Shown here in pieces: positions 6,888 through 25,256 of a stretch of 25,818 bases of DNA (position 1 is its first letter; each line of letters begins with the position of its first letter). Both the position numbers and the translations under genes were made by a program. The stretch comes from a virus. Its lineage: Duplodnaviria > Caudoviricetes. The notes under the pieces were generated by a model. That model made no database searches. It had not been told where the DNA came from and saw only the letters and a program-made list of their open reading frames with translations. The DNA lies in the IMG/VR virus record IMGVR_UViG_3300037467_000377, positions 1 through 25,818 of that record; one strand, given 5' to 3'.

Positions 6888-6923
6888 CAAAAGAAAAGAG
6901 GCCCGGATCGCTCCGAGCCTCTT
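6888..6923 (-). terminator. intrinsic terminator closing the Cas7-like operon
   Basis: Minus strand AAGAGGCUCGGA-GCGA-UCCGGGCCUCUU (12-bp stem, GNRA loop) followed by UUCUUUU. Confidence 0.85.
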
Positions 6924-6927
6924 GTTA

Positions 6928-7060
6928 GCCTTCGTCGCCTCGCCTGCCTCACCGAGGCCTGCCCAGACCCGCCTTGATCAACGCGCCTCGCCTGGCCTGC
7001 CTAGACAATCCAGACCATGCGTTGCTAAGCGTTGGCTTGCCTTGCCTGCCGTTCCGTGCC
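6928..7060 (-). ncRNA. periodic GGY-NN array 2 (putative guide RNA tract)
   Basis: Minus strand: ggc ac gga ac ggc A ggc aa ggc aa gcc aa cgc tt agc aa cgc at ggt ct gga tt gtc ta ggc A ggc ca ggc ga ggc gc gtt ga tc aa ggc gg gtc tg ggc A ggc... It shows a 5-nt period with GGCAGGC phase breaks and degenerates toward the terminator. Expression as RNA is inferred. Confidence 0.75.
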
Positions 7061-7067
7061 TACTCGT

Positions 7068-7577
7068 TTACGCAGCTTCCGTTTTGCTCGGCGCCTTTAC
7101 GCTCTGCAATTCGGATGCAAGGCGCTCAATTGACTTTGTTGAACCCTCGACGTGCAGCAACGCTGCTTTGTATCGGTTCATCCAAGACAACAGAGCTGTA
7201 CCCGCTTGCCGACAATGCTCTGCGATGTGCTCAGGGTCATTGGGATCGGTAAGCACATAGCCACCGCCATCCTTTCGACCCGCCACAGGCGAGATCACCG
7301 CCGGCATTTCAGTCGTTTTCACGGTAACAGCGCCGGAACGGCCGACTTCCTCAACCGTGAAACTCACTCTTAAATCCTTGGCAAACGAGCGTGCCTGCCA
7401 AAGTTGATGCTCCTGTGCCGCCTTAGACTGGTCCCACTCGAACCAATCGTAAGCCGGATGATCCTTGCCCTTCTCTCGAACCTCTTTGAGAAAAAGGGCT
7501 GGATCGTACAGACCGTTATGACGACGCGAGAAGTCTTCAACGATCTGTTGCCGCAACTCTTTCGTGAAGCGTGACAT
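7068..7577 (-). CDS. accessory protein of the Cas7-like/array locus (169 aa)
   Basis: ATG 7577 behind AAAGGAG (7584-7590). Motif HPAYDWFEWDQSKAAQEHQLWQAR resembles a phage hypothetical family. Lies between the two arrays; function unknown. Confidence 0.85.
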   Translation of the reverse strand: MSRFTKELRQQIVEDFSRRHNGLYDPALFLKEVREKGKDHPAYDWFEWDQSKAAQEHQLWQARSFAKDLRVSFTVEEVGRSGAVTVKTTEMPAVISPVAGRKDGGGYVLTDPNDPEHIAEHCRQAGTALLSWMNRYKAALLHVEGSTKSIERLASELQSVKAPSKTEAA

Positions 7578-7598
7578 CAACATCTCCTTTGTTGTGAT

Positions 7599-7777
7599 GC
7601 CTGCCACGCCTCGCCAAGCCGTGACCCGTCCAGCGCCGCCATGACTGCGTTGACGCGCCGCAACTAGCCGTAACGGGACTCACCGTCCCGCGCCTAGCCC
7701 CGCCAGCCAAGCCTAACTCCGACGCTCCGTCCCATATCCCGCCGGGCCGTAACGCACCCCGCCTTGCCTGCCGTGCC
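7599..7777 (-). ncRNA. periodic GGY-NN array 1 (putative guide RNA tract, three units)
   Basis: Minus strand parses without slippage as triplet+NN. Unit 1 is 7768-7706 (12 NN), unit 2 is 7704-7647 (11 NN), unit 3 is 7645-7603 (8 NN), separated by single-nt breaks. Triplets are mostly GGC/GGT/GTC/GTT. Confidence 0.85.
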
Positions 7778-8546: not shown

Positions 8547-8560
8547 GTTCAGTCTCCATC

Positions 8561-8665
8561 GGCACCCGGCCTGCCAAGCCCGAGCGCATAGGGGTTCGTT
8601 TTCACGAACGCCGGGGCCGATGAAGCCTCGAAACGTTCGCGCTCAATCCCGTTGGCAGACGGGAA
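8561..8665 (-). promoter_or_regulatory. structured 5' leader of the Cas7-like gene
   Basis: Hairpin UCCCGU-CUGCCA-ACGGGA (8664-8647). Stem GAGCGCG/UGCGCUC (8644-8638/8588-8582) encloses a GUUCGU-GAAA-ACGAAC hairpin. A competing hairpin next to the RBS has loop UUGGCA. Confidence 0.55.
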
Positions 8666-9339: not shown

Positions 9340-9421
9340 GGGTCGGTTAGGCGCTCCAACGCCTTTCCGGCCCGACGAATTCATGATATCCGTAATTATG
9401 ACGAAGTCAATACGGGATATC
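9340..9421 (-). promoter_or_regulatory. candidate sigma70-type promoter, operator-like inverted repeat and leader hairpin
   Basis: Minus strand TTGACT (9410-9405), 16 nt, TATCAT (9388-9383). Imperfect inverted repeat GATATCCGTA (9385-9394) / TACGGGATATC (9411-9421). Hairpin at 9340-9373 just downstream. Confidence 0.55.
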
Positions 9422-9637
9422 CCGAAAAAACGTGGTCGTGGACGACCGAAGACAACCGGCCGTGGCGAGGGGATACTTTTGCGCCTTCAGCCCGATTTGC
9501 TTGACCCCTTGGACGAGTGGCGAAAGACGCAAGACCCGGTTCCCAGCCGGCCAGAAGCGGTCAGGAGGGCCCTCACCGACTGGCTGACCAGCTTGGGGTT
9601 GATACCGCTAGACTCAGACCGGAAGGGCAAGCAATGA
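9383..9637 (+). CDS. ribbon-helix-helix (CopG/Arc/MetJ-like) transcriptional regulator
   Basis: KKRGRGRP basic arm, strand ILLRL, helix DLLDPLDEWR, and SRPEAVRRAL helix. Divergent from the accessory operon. The start may be ATG 9398. Confidence 0.85.
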   Translation: MISVIMTKSIRDIPKKRGRGRPKTTGRGEGILLRLQPDLLDPLDEWRKTQDPVPSRPEAVRRALTDWLTSLGLIPLDSDRKGKQ

Positions 9638-15310: not shown

Positions 15311-16977
15311 GTAACGGTCGGCGCGAGTTCGTAAGTCAAGTCAGTCTGGATCAATTCGGCGCTTGGCACCTGAATCGACCCCGACGTGATCTGAGTTGCG
15401 ACAGACACCGAATAACCCTGTCCAGGAGCGGATTTCCATGTCTGGAAAGTCTGCTTGGCCGCCTCATCACCCCAGAGCGATTCACCCCAGACCGCTGTGC
15501 CCCACAGGGCACCTGCCGGTACGGACGTGTCGGACGGAGCCGCCGGCAACCGGATGCGATAATCGGTTTGAAGTGAGAGGCGCGCCGTGACGGGACTATT
15601 CGCCCGTAGCACAGCGCGAGCCTGCAAGCCGTTTTTCTGCGAAGCCGGGGTTTTCAGCGGATCGAAAAGCGGAACGCAAGTCGCCGTATACGTTAGCGCC
15701 TCATCATAACCGGTAACTTCAGCCTCGATAACGCGACCTTCCGAGGTTCCAAAAAACAACCTATCTCCGAAAAGGCCAAGGCACGTTGGTGCCCAACCAT
15801 AGAACTCTGACCATGCGCCAGTACGAGCGTTGGCGACATAGATAATGGGATCATCGCCACTCGACCTTGGGAACGATACTAAAACCATCTGCTTGGTCGG
15901 CCAGACCTCGCACTGCCATTCCGTGGTTGGGCGATCCTCCACAATTTGGTTCCACGCAGTTTCGATCTTGTACGAAATAGCAGCGGGCGACAGAGCGGCG
16001 TAGTCGCGCTGAACAGCGGTCGAAAGCGGCACAAAACCCACGTCCGTAGCAATCACAAGATCGCCGCCCGCATGGATGAATGCCTTCGGACCACGCGGTT
16101 TGCCGATGCGATATACGCCAACCTTTGTCCAGCTATCGGCGCTGCTAGGATCGTCGCCTTGATAGACTGCCGCCTCACCTTCAGTGGTGATAAAGACGCA
16201 CTGCTCGTTCAAGCCGTTCCCAGTTTCGATCGACCACGTTGCGCCAAGCATCAGCGAACCGCCGCGCGTGAACACACCACCAAGCGGTAACTTTACCGCT
16301 GCGCCGCCGATGCTATCGACCGGCAGATACCAAGCGTCGAGGCTATCGCGCTCGATAAAGAACAACCGGCGCTTATAGGCCCAGACGAATTTCAGTGCGG
16401 TCGGATCGGTAATTCCCGTGATGGCCGGTGCCGTATCCCAGTCAGCGCCGTCATACAACAAAGGCGTGTCGGCACCGTTGACAGCTCTCAGAAACACTCC
16501 GCCCGAGGTTGCGAATTGCACAACCGACCAGCGCCCATCGGTTGACGAAATGCCAGGTTCAGCCGGGTTACTTCCGGAAAGAACGATGAACCTACCCTCA
16601 TCGTCAACGAGGAAATTCCCATCATCATCAACGAGAAATTGATCTTCAGAGTATGCGACTGTCGTAATGTCGTAGATTCCGCTATCATTGGCGGCAAAGA
16701 AATGACGATTGTTGCCGTTGATGTAGCTAAACAGGGACCGAACTGGCGCACCCTCGGCGCCGATAATCGCGTATCGCTGCGACCCGCCGCGCATGCGGAT
16801 GCCCGTCGCGGTCGGAAACCAGTTTCGCAGCATCGCCGCACCGTAGATACGGCTGCCGTCCGGCGTACGCGCGTTCGGAACAGCAAGATTCTCGTTCACA
16901 ATCCACCCACTGACCGGGGCCGGAAAGCTGGCGAGCTTGGCCACCTGCGGCTTGGTCTTCTGAGCGGGGGTGCGCAT
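15307..16977 (-). CDS. tail hub / packaged-DNA stabilisation protein (P22 gp10 / tail tubular B-like)
   Basis: 556 aa beta-rich protein following the adaptor gene, with N-terminal FPAPVSGW and NWFP motifs. Call relies on podovirus synteny. Confidence 0.75.
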   Translation of the reverse strand: MRTPAQKTKPQVAKLASFPAPVSGWIVNENLAVPNARTPDGSRIYGAAMLRNWFPTATGIRMRGGSQRYAIIGAEGAPVRSLFSYINGNNRHFFAANDSGIYDITTVAYSEDQFLVDDDGNFLVDDEGRFIVLSGSNPAEPGISSTDGRWSVVQFATSGGVFLRAVNGADTPLLYDGADWDTAPAITGITDPTALKFVWAYKRRLFFIERDSLDAWYLPVDSIGGAAVKLPLGGVFTRGGSLMLGATWSIETGNGLNEQCVFITTEGEAAVYQGDDPSSADSWTKVGVYRIGKPRGPKAFIHAGGDLVIATDVGFVPLSTAVQRDYAALSPAAISYKIETAWNQIVEDRPTTEWQCEVWPTKQMVLVSFPRSSGDDPIIYVANARTGAWSEFYGWAPTCLGLFGDRLFFGTSEGRVIEAEVTGYDEALTYTATCVPLFDPLKTPASQKNGLQARAVLRANSPVTARLSLQTDYRIRLPAAPSDTSVPAGALWGTAVWGESLWGDEAAKQTFQTWKSAPGQGYSVSVATQITSGSIQVPSAELIQTDLTYELAPTVT

Positions 16978-17669
16978 CAGCCAAGCGGTCCGGGATAGGC
17001 TGGCATAGCCCCAACGGGTATGCGCGTCAGACCAACAACCAGCGTCCGCGATCCCTTGTCGCGGGCAATCTCCTCCGAAAGCGCAATTTCATAGTTGCGG
17101 AGGTCTTCCGCGTATTCGTAACGCTTTTGCGCCCGCCAGCGCCAAATAAGCGCGAGCTTAATCAATCGCTCTGGCAGAACAAAAGAATCATCATCGGCTG
17201 TGAAGGTCGCTTTGAGCGCACCAGTGCTGGGACGGACAATCGTATTGCGCACGTAATAGAACTTTGCCGAGGTGTCGGAGCCTAGAGCTGGCAGCACCTG
17301 CATCTGCCCGCCGATGATGATCCAGTAGCCAGGAGCACCCGACACGCCACGAATCTGCATATCAAGCCAGAAATCCAAATCACGCGCTTTTACCAGTGGC
17401 ATCGCGAATTGCGTGGTCATAACCGCGCCCTTTGCTGGCATCCGGTCATAGTCGGACGGCAGGTTGAACGCCGTGGTTGAGCCGTCACCTGCCATCGTGT
17501 TCAGGGAGGTGAGCGCCTGCCAGTCATGCGCCTTGGCAATCGCGGTCGCTGCCTCATTGGCGAGCGTACGCAATTCCTTGGCGAACGGCTCGGTGCTGGT
17601 GAACACGGACGAAAGATCGTCCTGGTTCAAGACAACCGAAACGTCCTGACAGACGCTCAGAATGGTCAT
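16977..17669 (-). CDS. head-to-tail adaptor (P22 gp4 / tail tubular A-like)
   Basis: MTILSVCQDV, HDWQAL, FNLPSDYDR, LIKLALIWRWR; size and synteny fit. Confidence 0.8.
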   Translation of the reverse strand: MTILSVCQDVSVVLNQDDLSSVFTSTEPFAKELRTLANEAATAIAKAHDWQALTSLNTMAGDGSTTAFNLPSDYDRMPAKGAVMTTQFAMPLVKARDLDFWLDMQIRGVSGAPGYWIIIGGQMQVLPALGSDTSAKFYYVRNTIVRPSTGALKATFTADDDSFVLPERLIKLALIWRWRAQKRYEYAEDLRNYEIALSEEIARDKGSRTLVVGLTRIPVGAMPAYPGPLG

Positions 17670-18361
17670 GCAGCGGCTTTCTGTTTAAGCTCAGCGTTGA
17701 CTTCATCCGCCCGCTTGACCAGCGTGGCGTGGCTTGGATTGCCCTTCGGACGCTCGCCCGTGGCCTCCTCGATCCAGTTTTTGATGTCGTCCGCTTCCAT
17801 CTGCTCGAACGGGGAAGCGCATTCAGCAGTCGGCGCGACTTTTTCGCGTAACGCCTTGTTCTCAGCCTCAACGGCAGCGAGACGGCGCAACAGTTCGGCA
17901 TTGCCGGCGCTGCCCTTGGCAACGTCGAGATAGGCCTGAGCCTGCGTCTTCAGATCGCGCCCGCCCATACCAAGCTGCTTGAGCGCATTGCCATCAAGAG
18001 CGGCAAGCGTTTCCGCAGTATAGATGCTGAGCGCCTTCAGCTCATGGCGCTTGGCTTGGGTCAGGAACGGCAGTTCCTCAATCGGTGTGCCTTCCATCGC
18101 CTGTGCGCTGCCAGCCTTGAATCTTTTGTACTGTTCGGGGAAGCGCATCGCATAGGTGATTTCCTGACGGATGCCGTCAATGTCACCGATCTGCCAGACC
18201 TCGTGCGCGGGGAAGACCGCAAGGGTTTGCTTGTTCGCGGCAGTGCGGATTTCAACGCACTCGATATCCTTGAAGATCGGGCGGCCCTCTTTCTGAGAAG
18301 CCTTCTTGTCTTCAATGGTGTGAATGAAAAAGCGCGGGACAACGAGGTCTTTATCGGACAT
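17666..18361 (-). CDS. conserved phage head-module hypothetical protein
   Basis: 231 aa with an HhH-like segment (PIEELPFLT..KRHELKALSIYTAETLA), a coiled coil and a short C-terminal helical domain. RBS AGGA. Confidence 0.75.
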   Translation of the reverse strand: MSDKDLVVPRFFIHTIEDKKASQKEGRPIFKDIECVEIRTAANKQTLAVFPAHEVWQIGDIDGIRQEITYAMRFPEQYKRFKAGSAQAMEGTPIEELPFLTQAKRHELKALSIYTAETLAALDGNALKQLGMGGRDLKTQAQAYLDVAKGSAGNAELLRRLAAVEAENKALREKVAPTAECASPFEQMEADDIKNWIEEATGERPKGNPSHATLVKRADEVNAELKQKAAA

Positions 18362-18390
18362 GGTTCCTGTTCCGTCTGAGGGAGTGCTAA

Positions 18391-18420
18391 AGGAAAAGGG
18401 GCGACCCGAAGACCGCCCCT
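18391..18420 (-). terminator. intrinsic terminator after the decoration gene
   Basis: AGGGGCGGUC-UUCG-GGUCGCCCCU followed by UUUCC; cUUCGg tetraloop. Confidence 0.8.
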
Positions 18421-18439
18421 CAAAGTGTCTGGAGAGAGA

Positions 18440-18940
18440 TTACGCCGCGAGCGCGTCGTCCATCCAAGGACGGCTGATTTCGAACTCGGCAAGACCCGCC
18501 GAAGGAGTGTCAACAGCAGAAGCGCCCTTGGCATTCTTCACGCGGTCGCCGGCAACAACGGCGTCGTCAACGCTGCCGGCGGTTGAAGTGGCATAAACGT
18601 TGGCATCGTCCGCAAAGCCCGTCAGAGCCTTGCCAACCGCCTTGCCGCTGATTTGATACCAGCCATATTCGCTAGCCACACAGGCCGACATGGCGACGGC
18701 AACCGGGCCGATCGCATTGGCGGCAAGCAACGTGGTCGAATAGTCGTCCGTGTTGTAGGTCACCCACGACCCAACGCCCGTGCTGGCCGCGCCCTTGAGA
18801 TAGATGAACTCACCCACCCCATAGGTCGGATCAACCGCACGAACGATATCACCCAGTTTCCACGGAGAGGCGTAACCGGCCGCGAGGTGGTCGGCAATTG
18901 CCGGCGCACCAACCTGCGGCGTCATGAGAGTGTAAGCCAT
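18440..18940 (-). CDS. capsid decoration / cement protein
   Basis: 166 aa, Ala/Gly/Val-rich, motifs GEFIYLKG and YGWYQISG. Directly after the major capsid gene, RBS AAAGGAG. Confidence 0.7.
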   Translation of the reverse strand: MAYTLMTPQVGAPAIADHLAAGYASPWKLGDIVRAVDPTYGVGEFIYLKGAASTGVGSWVTYNTDDYSTTLLAANAIGPVAVAMSACVASEYGWYQISGKAVGKALTGFADDANVYATSTAGSVDDAVVAGDRVKNAKGASAVDTPSAGLAEFEISRPWMDDALAA

Positions 18941-18962
18941 AAGATGGCTCCTTTCTGCGAAT

Positions 18963-18997
18963 GGAAAAGAAAAGAGCCGAGCATGAGGCCCGGCTCC
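18963..18997 (-). terminator. intrinsic terminator after the major capsid gene
   Basis: GAGCCGGGC-CUCAU-GCUCGGCUC followed by UUUUCUUUU. Confidence 0.8.
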
Positions 18998-19012
18998 TAT
19001 TGATGCGTTGGA

Positions 19013-20032
19013 TTACGACGCGGTGTCGCTGTCGTAGAACTTCCAGTTGAACAGCGGGTTCACCATGGTCAACTCGCCCATCCAGCCGATGTACTGGACA
19101 ATCGCGTCCTGATTGATCGGCTTCATACCCTCGCCCTCGAACAGCTTGGAGAAGTTGCGGTTCGGGTTGTAGCGAATGCGGAGCGACTGAGTGTCGATTC
19201 CGTAGGTGACGTTCGCCGGCATGTTGGAGCCAATGCCGCCGTCCTGAACGATCTCAGCCTGGCGACCGGCGCCGAAATACTTGAGCGACTGGAAGCCGAG
19301 CTTGCCGAGGCTGGTTTCGTCCGTGATGCGCTGGATCGCTACCGTGGCCGCGTCATACGCCGCATAGTGTTCCGGCGACATGAGAAGCAGATCGGCGCCT
19401 CGCTTGCCGCGCGACCGTTGTGTCATGATGCGGTTGAGCATCGGACGAATCGTGGTGGACGTAACCTGCGTACCGATATCCGGGAAATCGTTATCGGCAT
19501 CGAAGGTGGACGTGCGCCAGATGGCATAGCTGGAACGCGAGATGCCGCCGTACGTGCCAGAGTTGGTCACGGTCGGAACTGCGACTTTCAGACCGCCGAG
19601 CTGCTTGCCACCATTGGCCGTACCATCCGAGTGGATAGCAGCATCCATGGTGTCGTTCAGCGAGCGTTCCGCCGCCTCGATATACGAGCGCATCACCGCG
19701 CGGAGCTGGTTTTCGCCCTGGTTGTTCAGAATCTCCTCGTAGGAGAGCGTAACCGGGACGGCGACCATCTTCGGGGTGAAGTACGCATCGTTGAACAGCT
19801 CAACGGGCGGCGCATCGAGGAAGTCATAACCGTTGTACCACTGCCCATCGGGTTTATCGATTTGCAGGGTTTCGCGAATGCGAGGGCCGGAATATTCCTG
19901 CCACAGATTCTTGCGGTTCATCACCGCGAGGAGCGCATTGCCGTTGGACACAAGGTCCTGATAGCCCTTGGAACGATCTTCCAGAGCCATCGACAAGACC
20001 TGCTGATAGGCCTCTGCCGAGTTGATAGACAT
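19013..20032 (-). CDS. major capsid protein
   Basis: 339 aa after the scaffold gene and followed by a terminator. Motifs DLVSNGNALL, WYNGYD.L, GTYGGISR, LGFQSLKY; strongly biased codon usage. Confidence 0.88.
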   Translation of the reverse strand: MSINSAEAYQQVLSMALEDRSKGYQDLVSNGNALLAVMNRKNLWQEYSGPRIRETLQIDKPDGQWYNGYDFLDAPPVELFNDAYFTPKMVAVPVTLSYEEILNNQGENQLRAVMRSYIEAAERSLNDTMDAAIHSDGTANGGKQLGGLKVAVPTVTNSGTYGGISRSSYAIWRTSTFDADNDFPDIGTQVTSTTIRPMLNRIMTQRSRGKRGADLLLMSPEHYAAYDAATVAIQRITDETSLGKLGFQSLKYFGAGRQAEIVQDGGIGSNMPANVTYGIDTQSLRIRYNPNRNFSKLFEGEGMKPINQDAIVQYIGWMGELTMVNPLFNWKFYDSDTAS

Positions 20033-20050
20033 TATTCTAGTCCTTTGAGA

Positions 20051-21202
20051 TTAGGACACCCGCGCGAATGCTCGCTTCAGGGCGTCATCAATTGTGGTGG
20101 ACGGCTCTGTCCGTGCCTGCGGAGGTGATCCGCGCGACGGAGCGCCGCTGATTGATTTCGTGCCTTTGGTGTGAGCATCGGCAGGAGCCGGGATGACCGG
20201 CGCAGGATTAGGCTCATTCTTTTGCGGTGCGGGGTTGAGCCGTTCCGCCAGGGAATAAGCTTCGGGCAAATCTTTGGCGCGACCCGACTTCATGAAGAAG
20301 GCGATATCATCGGCCAGTTCGTCAAAGCGGGGATGATCCGCTGCGAATTTCGTAACCTCATTCAGCGTGGCTTGCTGCTGTTGCTGCTGGATCGTCTGCG
20401 TCACGCCGCCGATCTGCTGCGTCAGTTGCTCCACCTGCTGCCGCAGTTCGCGAATGGTCGCGTCCTGCTTGCTCGAAACGTCTTCGGGCGTCTGGCCCAT
20501 GATATGCGCCGCAATATCGCGCAGCGACAGACCCAGACGATTAGCCAGTGTTTCAAAGCCACCAATCGGGTCTTTGCGGAGCGCCTGCTCCATCTGGTAA
20601 TATTCACGGAATACGTCCGCGCCCTTCTTGCCGAAGGACTTGGCGAGGTCGTCTAGCTCGCGGTAGGACTCATAAGCCTCCGCACTGGCGCGGTGCTTCT
20701 CGTAACCCTGCGTAAGCTCGCGCTCCATGCGCGCCACTTCGCCCCGGACGTTCTCAGGCACCGTGGCCCAAGCAGCCTTTGCATCGTCGGAGAACCGCTT
20801 GGGCGCGTCGCCAGCCGTGTAGCTCGGCTTAACCGGCTCCGCGTTCTGTTGCGGCTGTTCCTTCGGGGCGAACTTCCCGCCCTCACCACGGGGCTGCGCC
20901 GGCTTATCCGTCTCGACCGTTGCGGTCTTCGGTTCGGCCTTCACCTCTACGGGCTTGGCTGCTTCCGCCTTTTTCGCTTCCTGCTTTTCGCTGACCTTGG
21001 CGAAAGCCTTTTTCAGCGCCTCGTCCGGAGTCTTGGACACCTCGGACTTGACAGGCTCGCTCTTTACCTCTTCCGGCGCCTCCTGATTGATCTCAGGCCC
21101 GCCCGATTCAATCGGCGTTACCGTGTTCGCCGGGGCTTCCGAAATAGGAGCAAGATTAGCTGCAGGCGCAGCATCAGCCGCGCCCGTAAGAGCGTCCGTC
21201 AT
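20051..21202 (-). CDS. capsid scaffolding protein
   Basis: Charged Ala/Glu/Pro/Lys-rich N-terminus with RGEGGKFA, coiled coils, FAADHPRF, LPEAY..A. Between portal and capsid genes. Confidence 0.8.
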   Translation of the reverse strand: MTDALTGAADAAPAANLAPISEAPANTVTPIESGGPEINQEAPEEVKSEPVKSEVSKTPDEALKKAFAKVSEKQEAKKAEAAKPVEVKAEPKTATVETDKPAQPRGEGGKFAPKEQPQQNAEPVKPSYTAGDAPKRFSDDAKAAWATVPENVRGEVARMERELTQGYEKHRASAEAYESYRELDDLAKSFGKKGADVFREYYQMEQALRKDPIGGFETLANRLGLSLRDIAAHIMGQTPEDVSSKQDATIRELRQQVEQLTQQIGGVTQTIQQQQQQATLNEVTKFAADHPRFDELADDIAFFMKSGRAKDLPEAYSLAERLNPAPQKNEPNPAPVIPAPADAHTKGTKSISGAPSRGSPPQARTEPSTTIDDALKRAFARVS

Positions 21203-21236
21203 GGTCGTGTCCTGTCTGAGAGGGTGCTAGTAGGGC

Positions 21237-21578
21237 TTACGCCCGCTTCTGTTGCGGCCTTGCGCCGCTCTTGAATTGATCAAATGCCCGGTCAACAGCC
21301 GAGGCTATGGCCTTCTTATCCGGCGATGACCGTTTAAACGGCTTATGCCGCGCCGGATCGTTCCCGACCTCAATCATGCCAAGCCGCTTGTATTCCGCGC
21401 GGATAGCACTCTTGCTGGTGTAGACCTCACCGGAGGCCATGCTCTGCGTCTCCGGCATCTCATCGCTGAAGACGAGCGGACACGGCAGGCTGGAACGCTT
21501 GGGCGCTACTTTCGGCTTACGCACAATCTCGATTGGCTTGGACCAATCAATGAGCTTGTAGTTTTCCTTATAACTCAT
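21237..21578 (-). CDS. small protein between portal and scaffold
   Basis: ATGA-coupled to the portal gene; motif SMASGEVYTSKSAIR..YKRLG.IEVGND. Confidence 0.75.
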   Translation of the reverse strand: MSYKENYKLIDWSKPIEIVRKPKVAPKRSSLPCPLVFSDEMPETQSMASGEVYTSKSAIRAEYKRLGMIEVGNDPARHKPFKRSSPDKKAIASAVDRAFDQFKSGARPQQKRA

Positions 21579-23881
21579 GCGTCCGCGCGTTCCGCCTGCT
21601 GTGCCTTGATCTCGACGCCGCGCTCGGTCGCCGCAATCCCCGCATTCGTGGATGCTATGGAATTGTCGGTTTGTGTATTGGTCTGTTCGATCTTGGCGTG
21701 CGTTGCCGCAACCGTCGCGTTTGTCTTGACCTTGACGCCCTCTATCTCAAGCTGGAGCTTTTGAATTTGAAGAGCACCAATATCCATTTCCTGAGCGTGT
21801 TTCTGCGCCTTCTGTTGCATCTCAAGACCAGCCGTCGCGCGCTTCGCATCAAGATCGGCCTGGCGGGCCTGCGATGCGTCTAGGGCTTCCTGCTCGCGGA
21901 TGCGGCGGTCTAGCTCGTCGTTCTGCGCCTGAGACTGCGCATCAACCATCTGCTTCTGCGCGTCGGCCTGAGTTTTCATCGCCGCAGCCTGTGCGGATTG
22001 CGCCTCGCTCTGAGCCTTGACCTGCTCAGGATTCGGCGGCTTGGGCGCCTTGGCCAATTCCTTCATCTGCTCGGCAAACTCGTCAATCGAGCCTTCAAGC
22101 TCGCGCCCGGCGCGGAACTGGCTAGACACAAACTTCAGCGCGTCCGACATGAGCGGCGCGGCCTGCGGCACGGTCTGGATCAGCGGGAGAGCCTGATTCA
22201 TGAACCCGCCCAGCGCCGTCATAAACTCGGTCGCGCGTTGCTTCTGTGCATCCTCATCCGGCGAGATGGTCGAATCCGTCTCAATGTCCAGCACGAAGGG
22301 GCGTAACCGCTGCTCACGCAGCAGAGACATCACCTTCTCAACAGTCGGCTGTTCCTTGGCCTTCTGGACCTTGGCGTCCGTCGCCTGCGAGAGTTGAGCA
22401 AGCGCCTGCTCGGCCGCTTGGGGATTCTGTTCTGCCTGCGCTCGCAATTCCGGGTTCTGAAGCGCTTGAGCCGCTTGGGCCTTCGCCTCCTCAATGATCT
22501 GCGTAACCTGCTGCGCTAGATCCGCCTCAGTCTTCAGGTCGTCAACCTGACTCATTTCCAGCAAGGTCTTTGGCGTGAAGTTCTCCGCCATGATCTCCGC
22601 TGCAATGCGGGTGATATCGCGTGAGAACCGGACGATCTCTGCCTGCCGATCGCGAATGCGGATCGAGCCATACTGGCTCTTGAGCTGTTGGGCCGTGGCC
22701 GTCTCGCTCGCCTCAGTCGAGCCGCGCATAATATCCGACAGGCCCGTGATCTCGTACACGTCCTGAATAAGCTCTTTGCGCAGCGCGATAAGCTGCGTCA
22801 CCGTCTCCGCGATCATGTCTAGCGGCAGCCAGACGATCATATCCTTGAACGCGCCACCGCCGAAAGCAGCCCAATTGCTGATCGGGATCAGGACTTGGTT
22901 ATTCTCAACCTTCTTGATCGCCGCCTCAACAGCGTCGCCAATCTCGCCAGCGCCAGCCGGATAGAAACCGCGCACCTTCAGTGCCTCGGTCAACGCCGAG
23001 AGCCGCGCCGTGATCTCGTTCAGTTCTTCCAATTGATCCTTATAAAACAGCACATCCGGCACGGGGATGAGCGAGCGGCGCTGTACCGTTGCATAAGCCG
23101 GGCGCGGACACGGATAGAAACCCTCAAGCGTCAGATGCGGCTTATCCTCATCCAGCACCTTATCAACGCCGGGCGTCACCCAGATAACCTTGCCCTCATC
23201 CTTGTGCCAGATTTCCCAAACGCCGGCCTTGTTCTCGCTTGTGGCCGCGCCGCGCGTCTTATCGTCCTTCTGGACCTGATATTCAGCGTCGAGATAGGCG
23301 TCACCGCTCGTTTCCTTAAAGCGGTCTTCCATCTCGTCCTTGGTCAACCATGCACGCTTTGCGACCCACGGGACCTCCTGCCAGTTGCGGGCAAGGCCGT
23401 GCAGGAAATCGCGGCGGTCGGTATGTTCAATGCAGACCTTCTCGCCGTACTTGGTGTCATAACGAAGCCACGCCTGACCCCGCGCCTGAATCACCATGTC
23501 ATCGCGGACCAGCCGCATCACATGATCAATGTCGTTCTGCTCAAAGCAGACGATGGTGGAGCGTTCCAGAACCTCTGAGGCTTTACGCGGAACCGGCCGG
23601 CGATCACGGAAGCGCGGCATCACCACAGGGACAGGCGGCCGACTGTAAATCGATGGCTTCAGAACCTCGATATTCGCCCAGAACATCTGGAACTGGCGAT
23701 CACGAACGGTCGCGGCCAGTTTCGACAAATCAGCATACAGCTTGTCGATATTGTCGGCCTTCTCCTGATAATCGCGAAACGCCTTTTCCGACTCCTCTAT
23801 CGCATCAAGATATGGTTTGGACGAATTGGCAGGCTCGGACGAATAGTCGTCCTGCACGCCCTGGGTTTCGTCTTCAACCAT
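21575..23881 (-). CDS. portal protein (P22-like, long C-terminal coiled-coil barrel)
   Basis: 768 aa directly after terL, with ITGLSDIMRG...ETATAQQLK motif and Gln/Ala-rich C-terminal helices. Confidence 0.9.
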   Translation of the reverse strand: MVEDETQGVQDDYSSEPANSSKPYLDAIEESEKAFRDYQEKADNIDKLYADLSKLAATVRDRQFQMFWANIEVLKPSIYSRPPVPVVMPRFRDRRPVPRKASEVLERSTIVCFEQNDIDHVMRLVRDDMVIQARGQAWLRYDTKYGEKVCIEHTDRRDFLHGLARNWQEVPWVAKRAWLTKDEMEDRFKETSGDAYLDAEYQVQKDDKTRGAATSENKAGVWEIWHKDEGKVIWVTPGVDKVLDEDKPHLTLEGFYPCPRPAYATVQRRSLIPVPDVLFYKDQLEELNEITARLSALTEALKVRGFYPAGAGEIGDAVEAAIKKVENNQVLIPISNWAAFGGGAFKDMIVWLPLDMIAETVTQLIALRKELIQDVYEITGLSDIMRGSTEASETATAQQLKSQYGSIRIRDRQAEIVRFSRDITRIAAEIMAENFTPKTLLEMSQVDDLKTEADLAQQVTQIIEEAKAQAAQALQNPELRAQAEQNPQAAEQALAQLSQATDAKVQKAKEQPTVEKVMSLLREQRLRPFVLDIETDSTISPDEDAQKQRATEFMTALGGFMNQALPLIQTVPQAAPLMSDALKFVSSQFRAGRELEGSIDEFAEQMKELAKAPKPPNPEQVKAQSEAQSAQAAAMKTQADAQKQMVDAQSQAQNDELDRRIREQEALDASQARQADLDAKRATAGLEMQQKAQKHAQEMDIGALQIQKLQLEIEGVKVKTNATVAATHAKIEQTNTQTDNSIASTNAGIAATERGVEIKAQQAERADA

Positions 23882-23882
23882 C

Positions 23883-25256
23883 TTAAATCCTGATCCTGTT
23901 GCCGCTTACCGTTGGGATCGGCGGCGGAATGATCTTGCCCTTCGGGGCTATGCGCGGCTGCTCTGCAACCACTTCCGGCACATGCCGCCACGACAGCGCG
24001 AGGTAGCGGAATGCGTCGGCCAAATGGCTGGTCCAGTCGTGGACCTCGCTCGCCTTGAATGTCTTTTTCTCGTCGTCCCATTCGCGCCGGTATTGCTCCA
24101 GCGCAGATATGCCTACCTGCTCGCAACGCGGGTGAAACACCGCTGTCTTGAGCGTGGTGCGCGCCGCCTGAATGCCGTCGAGCTTGGATACGTTTGGAAC
24201 AAGCTGCGGGTCCAGCCGCAACGCCTGCATCGTCTCAACGCGAGTTCGACCCGTACCCCACTCCTTCACCTTCGCGTCGTGGGGGACGAAATCGAACCCC
24301 GGCGTATAGGGCTTGCCGTGAACCACCTCGGCGTAATGATCGACGCCAGCGCCAGAAGCCGTATAGCAGTCAATAATGTAGGGACGCCCGGCGATAACCT
24401 GGAACCACCAGATGCTCGTATCGTCGCGAACGCCAATGTCCCAAGCTCTGTGAACCGGCTTATTCGGTACCGGCTCAAATTCCCTAATCCTGCCGTCGCT
24501 GCGTAGCGCCAGCATCTCACGGGCATAAAACGCACCCAGGATCGCCGCATTGAAGGAGCAGAGATATTCCTGCTCGTACTGCGCACGGCCTATATCCTCG
24601 CCGTATAATGCGGCGTAGTCCTTAATCGCCTCGTCCAATTGCTCTTGTGTCAGAGCGCCCGTGTCGTGGATGGTCGAGACTTCCGCAAACCAGCGCGGAT
24701 TATCCTTCGCCATGTCGTACATGGACTTGGCGTGATTACGACCGCGAGGCGTCGTGATGAACGAAGCCCAGCCGTTGTTCTCCTCAATCATCGGGCGGAT
24801 GAAGCCCCACGCAGAGGGGTTCGCCAGTGCCCATTCAGAGAAGGTCACGCCGGCAATACCAGCGCCAACAAGGCTATTGTACCGATCGGACCCGATAACC
24901 TGCCACGTCGAGCCATTCTTGAAGCGGATGAACATTTGCTGCTCATCCTTGCTGTCGCGGATCTCCGGCGGGAACGCCTCGTCAATCCGCCGCTTGCCCG
25001 TATGCGGGTTAACCGCTGTCCAAATAGCCTTTCGCGCTTGCTCGTATTCAGGCAGACAATGCCAATAACTCGCGACACGCTCATGAGCGGCTATCGCCGT
25101 GCGGTGCAGGACAACATCATCCTTGCCCCAACGTCGATGGGCTATTTCAATCGCGCGCTTGCCGCCGCCCTCTAGATAATCCCATAGCCTTCGCTGATAT
25201 GGCCGGGGTTGCCAGCCATTCGGAAGGCTAACCCGCAAACCGCTTGATCTCGACAA
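23883..25256 (-). CDS. terL: terminase large subunit
   Basis: PRPYQ, Walker A-like HRRWGKD, Walker B-like VTFSEWA, FITTPRGRNH, nuclease AWDIG..D and SHLADAFRY. No ATG near the 5' end; start is TTG 25256 or TTG 25238. Confidence 0.95.
   Translation of the reverse strand: MSRSSGLRVSLPNGWQPRPYQRRLWDYLEGGGKRAIEIAHRRWGKDDVVLHRTAIAAHERVASYWHCLPEYEQARKAIWTAVNPHTGKRRIDEAFPPEIRDSKDEQQMFIRFKNGSTWQVIGSDRYNSLVGAGIAGVTFSEWALANPSAWGFIRPMIEENNGWASFITTPRGRNHAKSMYDMAKDNPRWFAEVSTIHDTGALTQEQLDEAIKDYAALYGEDIGRAQYEQEYLCSFNAAILGAFYAREMLALRSDGRIREFEPVPNKPVHRAWDIGVRDDTSIWWFQVIAGRPYIIDCYTASGAGVDHYAEVVHGKPYTPGFDFVPHDAKVKEWGTGRTRVETMQALRLDPQLVPNVSKLDGIQAARTTLKTAVFHPRCEQVGISALEQYRREWDDEKKTFKASEVHDWTSHLADAFRYLALSWRHVPEVVAEQPRIAPKGKIIPPPIPTVSGNRIRI

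Follow-up and report, generated by a model that had tools for sequence, protein, structure and literature searches.

The one-base breaks that interrupt the two repeat arrays of a phage VIPR cassette are conserved four-base junctions that split the arrays into predicted guides, and we infer that they are likely the sites at which the cassette RNA is cut. The cassette lies within a 25,818-base virus record, analysed over its whole length and referred to here as the window. The system is a phage VIPR with the staggered layout already described in a 2026 preprint (10.64898/2026.04.26.720920), and the general idea being in print, the surprise is limited. In that work, Yoon et al. 2026 describe 'staggered' arrays whose guides are taken from positions with a one-base overlap, each guide's end marking where the next begins (legend of fig. 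S18). RNA confirmation of the staggered arrays, proposed there in 2026, is absent from its text, which gives RNA sequencing for the ribozyme and single-guide layouts only and not for staggered arrays (10.64898/2026.04.26.720920). The strings GGCAGGC and GGCGGTC are likewise absent from the main text and supplement text, and figure S18 and data S3-S4 may hold junctions. No further publication on staggered arrays was found in the literature searched. What is added here is a clade-specific junction motif, a boundary test on three targets, and the swapping of segments. The locus is thereby a compact test case, offering a junction of defined sequence, three adjacent predicted guides whose targets are named, and signs that guides turn over as whole modules.

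Results

Cassette layout and proteins

The minus-strand genes of the window resemble a terminase-portal-capsid-tail cluster, most of the names being our own reading; Pfam named few genes of the virion cluster, the tail-collar gene being among those with independent naming. The nearest relatives of the gene under study lie in alphaproteobacterial genomes. The cassette sits between the virion cluster and a tail-fibre gene and runs in the order promoter-like site, short open reading frames, vipr, array 1, accessory gene, array 2 and terminator-like hairpin (Table 1), which is a minimal form of VIPR locus, vipr plus accessory gene, carried by a phage. The sigma-70-like match could drive the whole cassette as a single transcript. 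A ribbon-helix-helix-like gene (window 9383-9637, plus strand), divergent from the cassette and overlapping the promoter-like site, encodes a possible regulator.

Table 1 Features of the VIPR cassette (window coordinates; a vertical bar in a motif marks the break).
Feature	Position	Strand	Remarks
Sigma-70-like promoter match	9383..9410	-	10/12 of consensus, frequency about chance
Conserved structured leader upstream of vipr	8554..8664	-	Predicted kissing loop, second pseudoknot, stem over ribosome-binding site
vipr gene; product of 251 aa, RAMP/Cas7-like, having thumb and G-loop	7791..8546	-	Profile, model, conserved residues
Start of array 1: GGCAC as lead-in unit, then junction GGCA|GGC (break after 7769) and first guide unit	7761..7777	-	
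Array 1 segment 1, 12 pentamers + GGCT	7705..7768	-	Predicted guide against SLT domain in a related phage's virion-cluster gene
Array 1 segment 2, 11 pentamers + CGCA	7646..7704	-	Predicted guide against glucosaminidase motif GYATDPTYAAK
Array 1 segment 3, 8 pentamers + GGCA	7602..7645	-	Predicted guide against other-clade vipr genes
Terminal junction GGCA|GGCAT, directly before accessory-gene ribosome-binding site	7597..7605	-	
Accessory (vap-like) gene, 169 aa	7068..7577	-	Beside vipr in most relatives (tblastn); phrog_15946
Array 2 start: GGCAC GGAAC, junction GGCA|GGC (break after 7047)	7039..7060	-	
Array 2 segment 1, 9 pentamers + GGCA	6998..7046	-	Variable bases A/T-rich
Array 2 segment 2, irregular	6935..6997	-	Shift near 6979, junction 6945 (or 6960), two trailing units
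Intrinsic-terminator-like hairpin ending the cassette	6896..6923	-	12-pair stem and T run

A profile built from 53 Vipr relatives returned SUSP1 Vipr (36PP) as its sole PDB match (E 5.8e-5), and an AlphaFold model of Vipr (pLDDT 86) found its best Foldseek matches in Csm and type VII CRISPR complexes. Residues R145, D184 and R186 are invariant among the relatives and F185 nearly so; in alignment these four fall on R138, D177, R179 and W178 of SUSP1 Vipr, its GGY-reading residues (10.64898/2026.04.26.720927). In the thumb, D135 and D141 are invariant as well. A Pfam search assigned no family to Vipr and gave no significant match for the accessory protein, and an ESM Atlas search returned unnamed viral clusters only. 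The accessory protein is modelled with a pLDDT of 94 and has no clear fold match (Foldseek best E 0.24, VIA-align best Z 4.0). Profile, model and fold searches of the cassette proteins identified no nuclease fold or catalytic residue; for the accessory protein, the absence of a match to the predicted fold speaks neither for nor against a nuclease.

One-base breaks are conserved junctions

Both arrays are non-coding tandem GGY/NN pentamers adjoining vipr, with a degenerate scaffold, and were not reported by Tandem Repeats Finder; folding of the array segments gave no shared hairpin or common fold across segments. An HMM parse, in which units of 3, 4, 6 and 7 bases are penalised alike relative to pentamers, recovers breaks at 7769, 7705, 7646, 7047 and 6998, to which the terminal GGCA|GGC adds the one at 7602. 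Four of these six read GGCA|GGC (7769, 7602, 7047 and 6998), the others being GGCT|GGC at 7705 and CGCA|GTC at 7646. The original prediction had listed these six breaks, which hold, together with a seventh at 6960, which is doubtful: the parse keeps register there (GGCAG-GCCTC-GGTGA) and shifts instead at about 6979 (GTTG|ATCAA, irregular) and at 6945 (GGCA|GGC, absent from the earlier list). Parsed in this way, segment 2 of array 2 comprises ten units, one base having probably been lost near 6979, and is possibly a damaged guide.

We compared the unit boundaries across 98 loci (97 relatives and the window; L098, a partial match, was dropped), 96 of which have arrays, giving 115 unique arrays. 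Close relatives, with at least 64% identity, make up 33 loci with 46 arrays, and distant ones 48 loci with 67 arrays. The four-base breaks recur across these homologous arrays, with 668 of the 715 non-pentamer units in the 115 arrays being four bases long in the HMM parse and a median of nine repeats lying between breaks; on the opposite strand, five arrays only were called. Spacings of 8-13 repeats account for 79% of 148 segments and 66% of 382, where random placement would give 20%. The breaks are thus far beyond chance. In close relatives 121 of 196 breaks read GGCA|GGC, and in distant ones 331 of 465 read GGCG|GTC. A junction follows after one or two units at the array start in 27/45 and 34/67 arrays, and 47 of 110 arrays end in one. 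More arrays were expected to end in a junction when a gene follows than when a terminator does, which was not so (23/39 versus 10/18, from crude pattern calls).

A second Vipr clade (L135-L161, 15 loci) has proteins of about 200 aa with 22-29% identity where aligned. GGCAGGC junctions are also present in arrays of some of its loci (L147, L159).

Target matching ends at the breaks

Targets were read with the VIPR one-base-skip code, the skipped base falling at the wobble position, and all matches are computational. Each of the three adjacent segments of array 1 matches a different gene carried by rival phages, the three genes being unrelated; the matches are codon-aligned and end at the breaks. 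Segment 1 matches at 23/24 in L117 and L134, which share the same site and are probably near-identical phages, and at 21/24 in L104, on the sense strand and in frame with the skipped base at the wobble position, where 300 shuffles reach at most 19/24. The site is the SLT domain (PF01464, lytic transglycosylase) in the counterpart of window gene 13937-12237 (minus strand), which itself has a glucosaminidase domain where the counterpart, L117 15488-17389, carries SLT. Exact scans for segment 1 found no site in viral contigs or metagenomes, and a site with three mismatches is present in 1 of 401 genomes, in the same gene family as the L117 target.

Segment 2 matches at 22/22 in five viral contigs, all sense and in frame, at the GYATDPTYAAK motif, which is widespread; the pattern occurs in 0/5 host-like genomes. 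The phage's own copy at 13241 matches at 17/22 and the best copy in a related phage at 18/22, so that the five contigs are candidate targets rather than a pinned-down true one. Array 1 holds one predicted guide for each alternative form of the cell-wall hydrolase domain, glucosaminidase and SLT. Segment 3 matches at 16/16 in 27 viral contigs, against 9/16 in its own vipr, and 15 of the 27 sites lie in frame at the G-loop end of other-clade Vipr homologues (HMM E 1e-13 to 1e-19). The best self matches in the 25.8 kb window are 16/24, 17/22, 11/16 and 12/18, and a self-target of at least 80% is absent there.

That the breaks define unit boundaries, as originally predicted, is supported by adjacent segments matching unrelated targets and by the loss of matching across the breaks. 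Inside segments matching is 193/198, and just outside it drops to 9/64 and 17/72 (12/46 and 11/54 with the short unit skipped), counted over nine non-independent sites, which belong to segments 1 and 2 and to a segment of one relative. The codon before the site starts with GG in 15/15 vipr targets, a place at which the guide side has AA or AG. Past segment 2, the second codon beyond the site is matched by the opening NN of segment 3 in all five contigs (non-independent), and the segment 3 site is followed by AT in 6/15; from these repeated AT matches, the guide may extend one unit beyond the junction.

A predicted guide of a relative, L077, finds its match in the terminase-like gene of other, related VIPR phages at 20/20 and 19/20, while its own copy scores 16/20 (coordinates of the sites: L077 4145 versus L075 4441 and L080 5252), and the matching stops at both breaks. 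When 319 and 372 segments of relatives were scanned in bulk against a limited DNA set, no excess over shuffles appeared bar one perfect match, at 20/20 in a terminase-like gene. For array 2, segment 1 had no match in 134 loci or 121 genomes, and segment 2 had no convincing target, its 12 metagenome matches being scattered and the single recurring gene not wobble-aligned.

Proposed cutting or filament reset at the junctions

By analogy with known VIPR systems, each GGY-NN repeat would be bound by one Vipr subunit, and the guide would pair with DNA while skipping every third base, leading to silencing of the gene. At GGCA|GGC the next GGY would arrive one base early, so a single filament could not be expected to run through the junction; the short unit would end one filament and begin the next. 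Signals for RNA processing or for filament start and stop, as first suggested for the breaks, are thus plausible and agree with the published model. The junction would be read by its sequence, and the RNA then cut or trimmed there. Its reader is probably the system's own protein, because the fixed sequence changes with the Vipr clade. At the start and the end of an array, the lead-in junction and the terminal one would release the outermost guides from the coding RNA beside them, and the predicted guide length is about 8-12 repeats between junctions. With the arrays divided into separate predicted guides, three of them with matches to unrelated genes, the slips likely mark the cutting of a long RNA.

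The junctions could instead only reset the filament, with Vipr filaments lying side by side on uncut RNA, each with its own target. The target and spacing results would fit this equally, and the terminal junctions, which are independent of what comes after the array, agree with it, as does the one subunit per repeat seen in the published structures (10.64898/2026.04.26.720927). A pure register stop, however, needs neither a fixed fourth base nor a clade-specific sequence, and other VIPR types make separate short RNAs (10.64898/2026.04.26.720920), so a reset alone appears unlikely to us. The guides are embedded in a predicted mRNA, which makes cutting the likeliest outcome, ahead of a filament reset without cutting.

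Turnover of whole guides

Whole guides are also gained, lost and swapped at these junctions. The 78 blocks that related arrays share have 122 internal edges, of which 45 lie exactly at a break in both arrays; after de-duplication this becomes 22 of 64, compared with 9% and 18% in two simulations. The segment that follows a shared segment is unrelated in 28 cases and the same in 41, and L003 differs from L001 by one whole extra segment between two GGCACGGCA copies. From the edges of the shared blocks and the differing next segments, whole guides therefore turn over at junctions. The earlier suggestion that the breaks are recombination points for guide shuffling stands as far as this excess over simulation goes, and falls short in that most edges are not exactly at breaks; selection against chimeric guides could be another source of the same edge pattern.

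The edge counts, the unrelated next segments and the extra segment of L003 would also suit junctions that serve mainly as recombination or slippage points for whole guides and have no role at the RNA level. We regard this as improbable, since it leaves the constant shortening by exactly one base unexplained, and the edges from which it draws would be the same under selection against chimeric guides.

Cutting and turnover may meet in one element: a tentative proposal for this large branch of VIPR is that the system's own protein both reads and cuts the clade-specific four-base junction (GGCA|GGC or GGCG|GTC) and that the same junction is the site of guide insertion or exchange. If so, a one-base frameshift of the scaffold would do both jobs of a CRISPR repeat without a repeat, Cas6 or Cas1, as a minimal forerunner of the CRISPR array. 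Self-processing at the junction would, for its part, yield a multiplexed guide array of very small size and offer a model of how CRISPR repeats originated.

The start of the arrays

The 14-mer ACGGCAGGCAAGGC occurs at 7774-7761 and 7052-7039 on the minus strand and nowhere else in the window. As first noticed, it is identical in both arrays and comes shortly after stop codons, starting 17 and 16 positions past the last stop-codon base of vipr and of the accessory gene, respectively. It begins with the AC of the lead-in unit, continues through the junction into the first guide repeat, and closes with another GGC. With 9 of its 14 bases belonging to the scaffold and the same 14-mer carried by 2/24 relatives, the identity is weaker than it looks. 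Among close-relative array starts, ACGGCAGGC is present in 9/24 and the full 14-mer in 2/24 (about 5-8% per array). The array 2 lead-in is the same in L008/L086 and L087.

A dedicated leader, a signal for transcription start (promoter) or for loading that differs in kind from the remaining junctions, would account for the identity between the arrays and for the enrichment of AC before the first junction. Its AA, however, is guide information, a position that in array 1 matches the target codon AAT and that varies among relatives (the two bases next after the start junction being GA in 9, AA in 6 and others in 9 of 24), and the first 14-mer is not common to the array pairs of other relatives. 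Such a leader is thus very improbable, and the predicted shared 14-nucleotide leader does not stand as a distinct element; the region is a genuine start junction, conserved over about nine bases and followed by the first guide repeat. The last explanation, in which a decaying repeat has lost single bases at random and the breaks are the result, has next to no likelihood: the shift near 6979 does resemble such damage, but shifts are almost only minus-one with a fixed sequence, regular spacing and intact targets on both sides, and for the canonical junctions it is refuted by the dominance of four-base units and their regular spacing in the 115 arrays.

A second type of array start consists of GCG(A/G)A, a hairpin and then TGGC(A/G)(A/G)GGATC(A/T)CGGC ahead of the first junction. 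It is found directly past the accessory gene in L005, L009, L010, L014, L016, L020, L022, L038, L081, L084 and L088.

Comparison with known systems

In class 1 CRISPR, one precursor contains many guides, the repeat is cut by Cas6, and a RAMP filament forms on each guide. The arrays described here would be alike in the one precursor, the many guides and the RAMP filament per guide, and both have a fixed motif at each boundary. Unlike class 1 CRISPR, they are without 23-47 nt repeats, contiguous spacers, a shared junction hairpin and adjoining cas genes, and the boundary consists of 7-9 bases of the scaffold itself in place of the CRISPR repeat. A CRISPR array was rejected on the period of five bases, two of them variable, and on the absence of any Rfam CRISPR repeat on the arrays.

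With the staggered VIPR arrays (10.64898/2026.04.26.720920), the locus has in common vipr and one accessory gene in a phage, GGY/NN repeats, one-base offsets, and wobble-aligned targets in rival phages and other VIPR systems. With type II VIPR (SUSP1 and a Pseudomonas fulva prophage), it shares a homologous Vipr with GGY-reading residues and the one-base-skip code. Type II guides are about 100 nt, each with a structured 3' tail that is a pseudoknot in SUSP1 (10.64898/2026.04.26.720920, 10.64898/2026.04.26.720927), whereas the segments here abut without a 3' tail and their scaffold is more degenerate (GTC, GGA, GTT, CGC). TIGR-Tas, for which an 18-base periodicity is reported (10.64898/2026.10.15.759431 or 10.64898/2026.10.21.760802), was rejected because the period here is five and the protein is RAMP-like rather than Tas.

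Leader RNA of vipr

The structured leader upstream of vipr shows two-sided changes at 20 of 34 pairs in 17 relatives, the structure having been derived from the same sequences. In its predicted kissing loop, the hairpin loop CTGCCA (8658-8653) is complementary to TGGCAG (8576-8571), and the loop has a complement of at least six bases in 17/20 loci, versus 21% across loci. The leader is also present in L002, L004-L010, L012-L014, L020, L022, L081-L084, L086 and L087. No family reached the gathering score in an Rfam scan, and no description of this RNA was found in the literature searched. It is possibly a translational switch for vipr. A GGCAGGC at 8575, within the leader, was rejected as a conserved junction because its loop co-varies with the pairing partner.

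Upstream of the leader, a 52-codon open reading frame (window 8935-8666, minus strand) remains open further beyond a single TAG at 8779-8777 and looks like a single gene with a premature stop. Elsewhere in the window, positions 16738-24197 are identical to the viral contig L108 across 7,460 bases.
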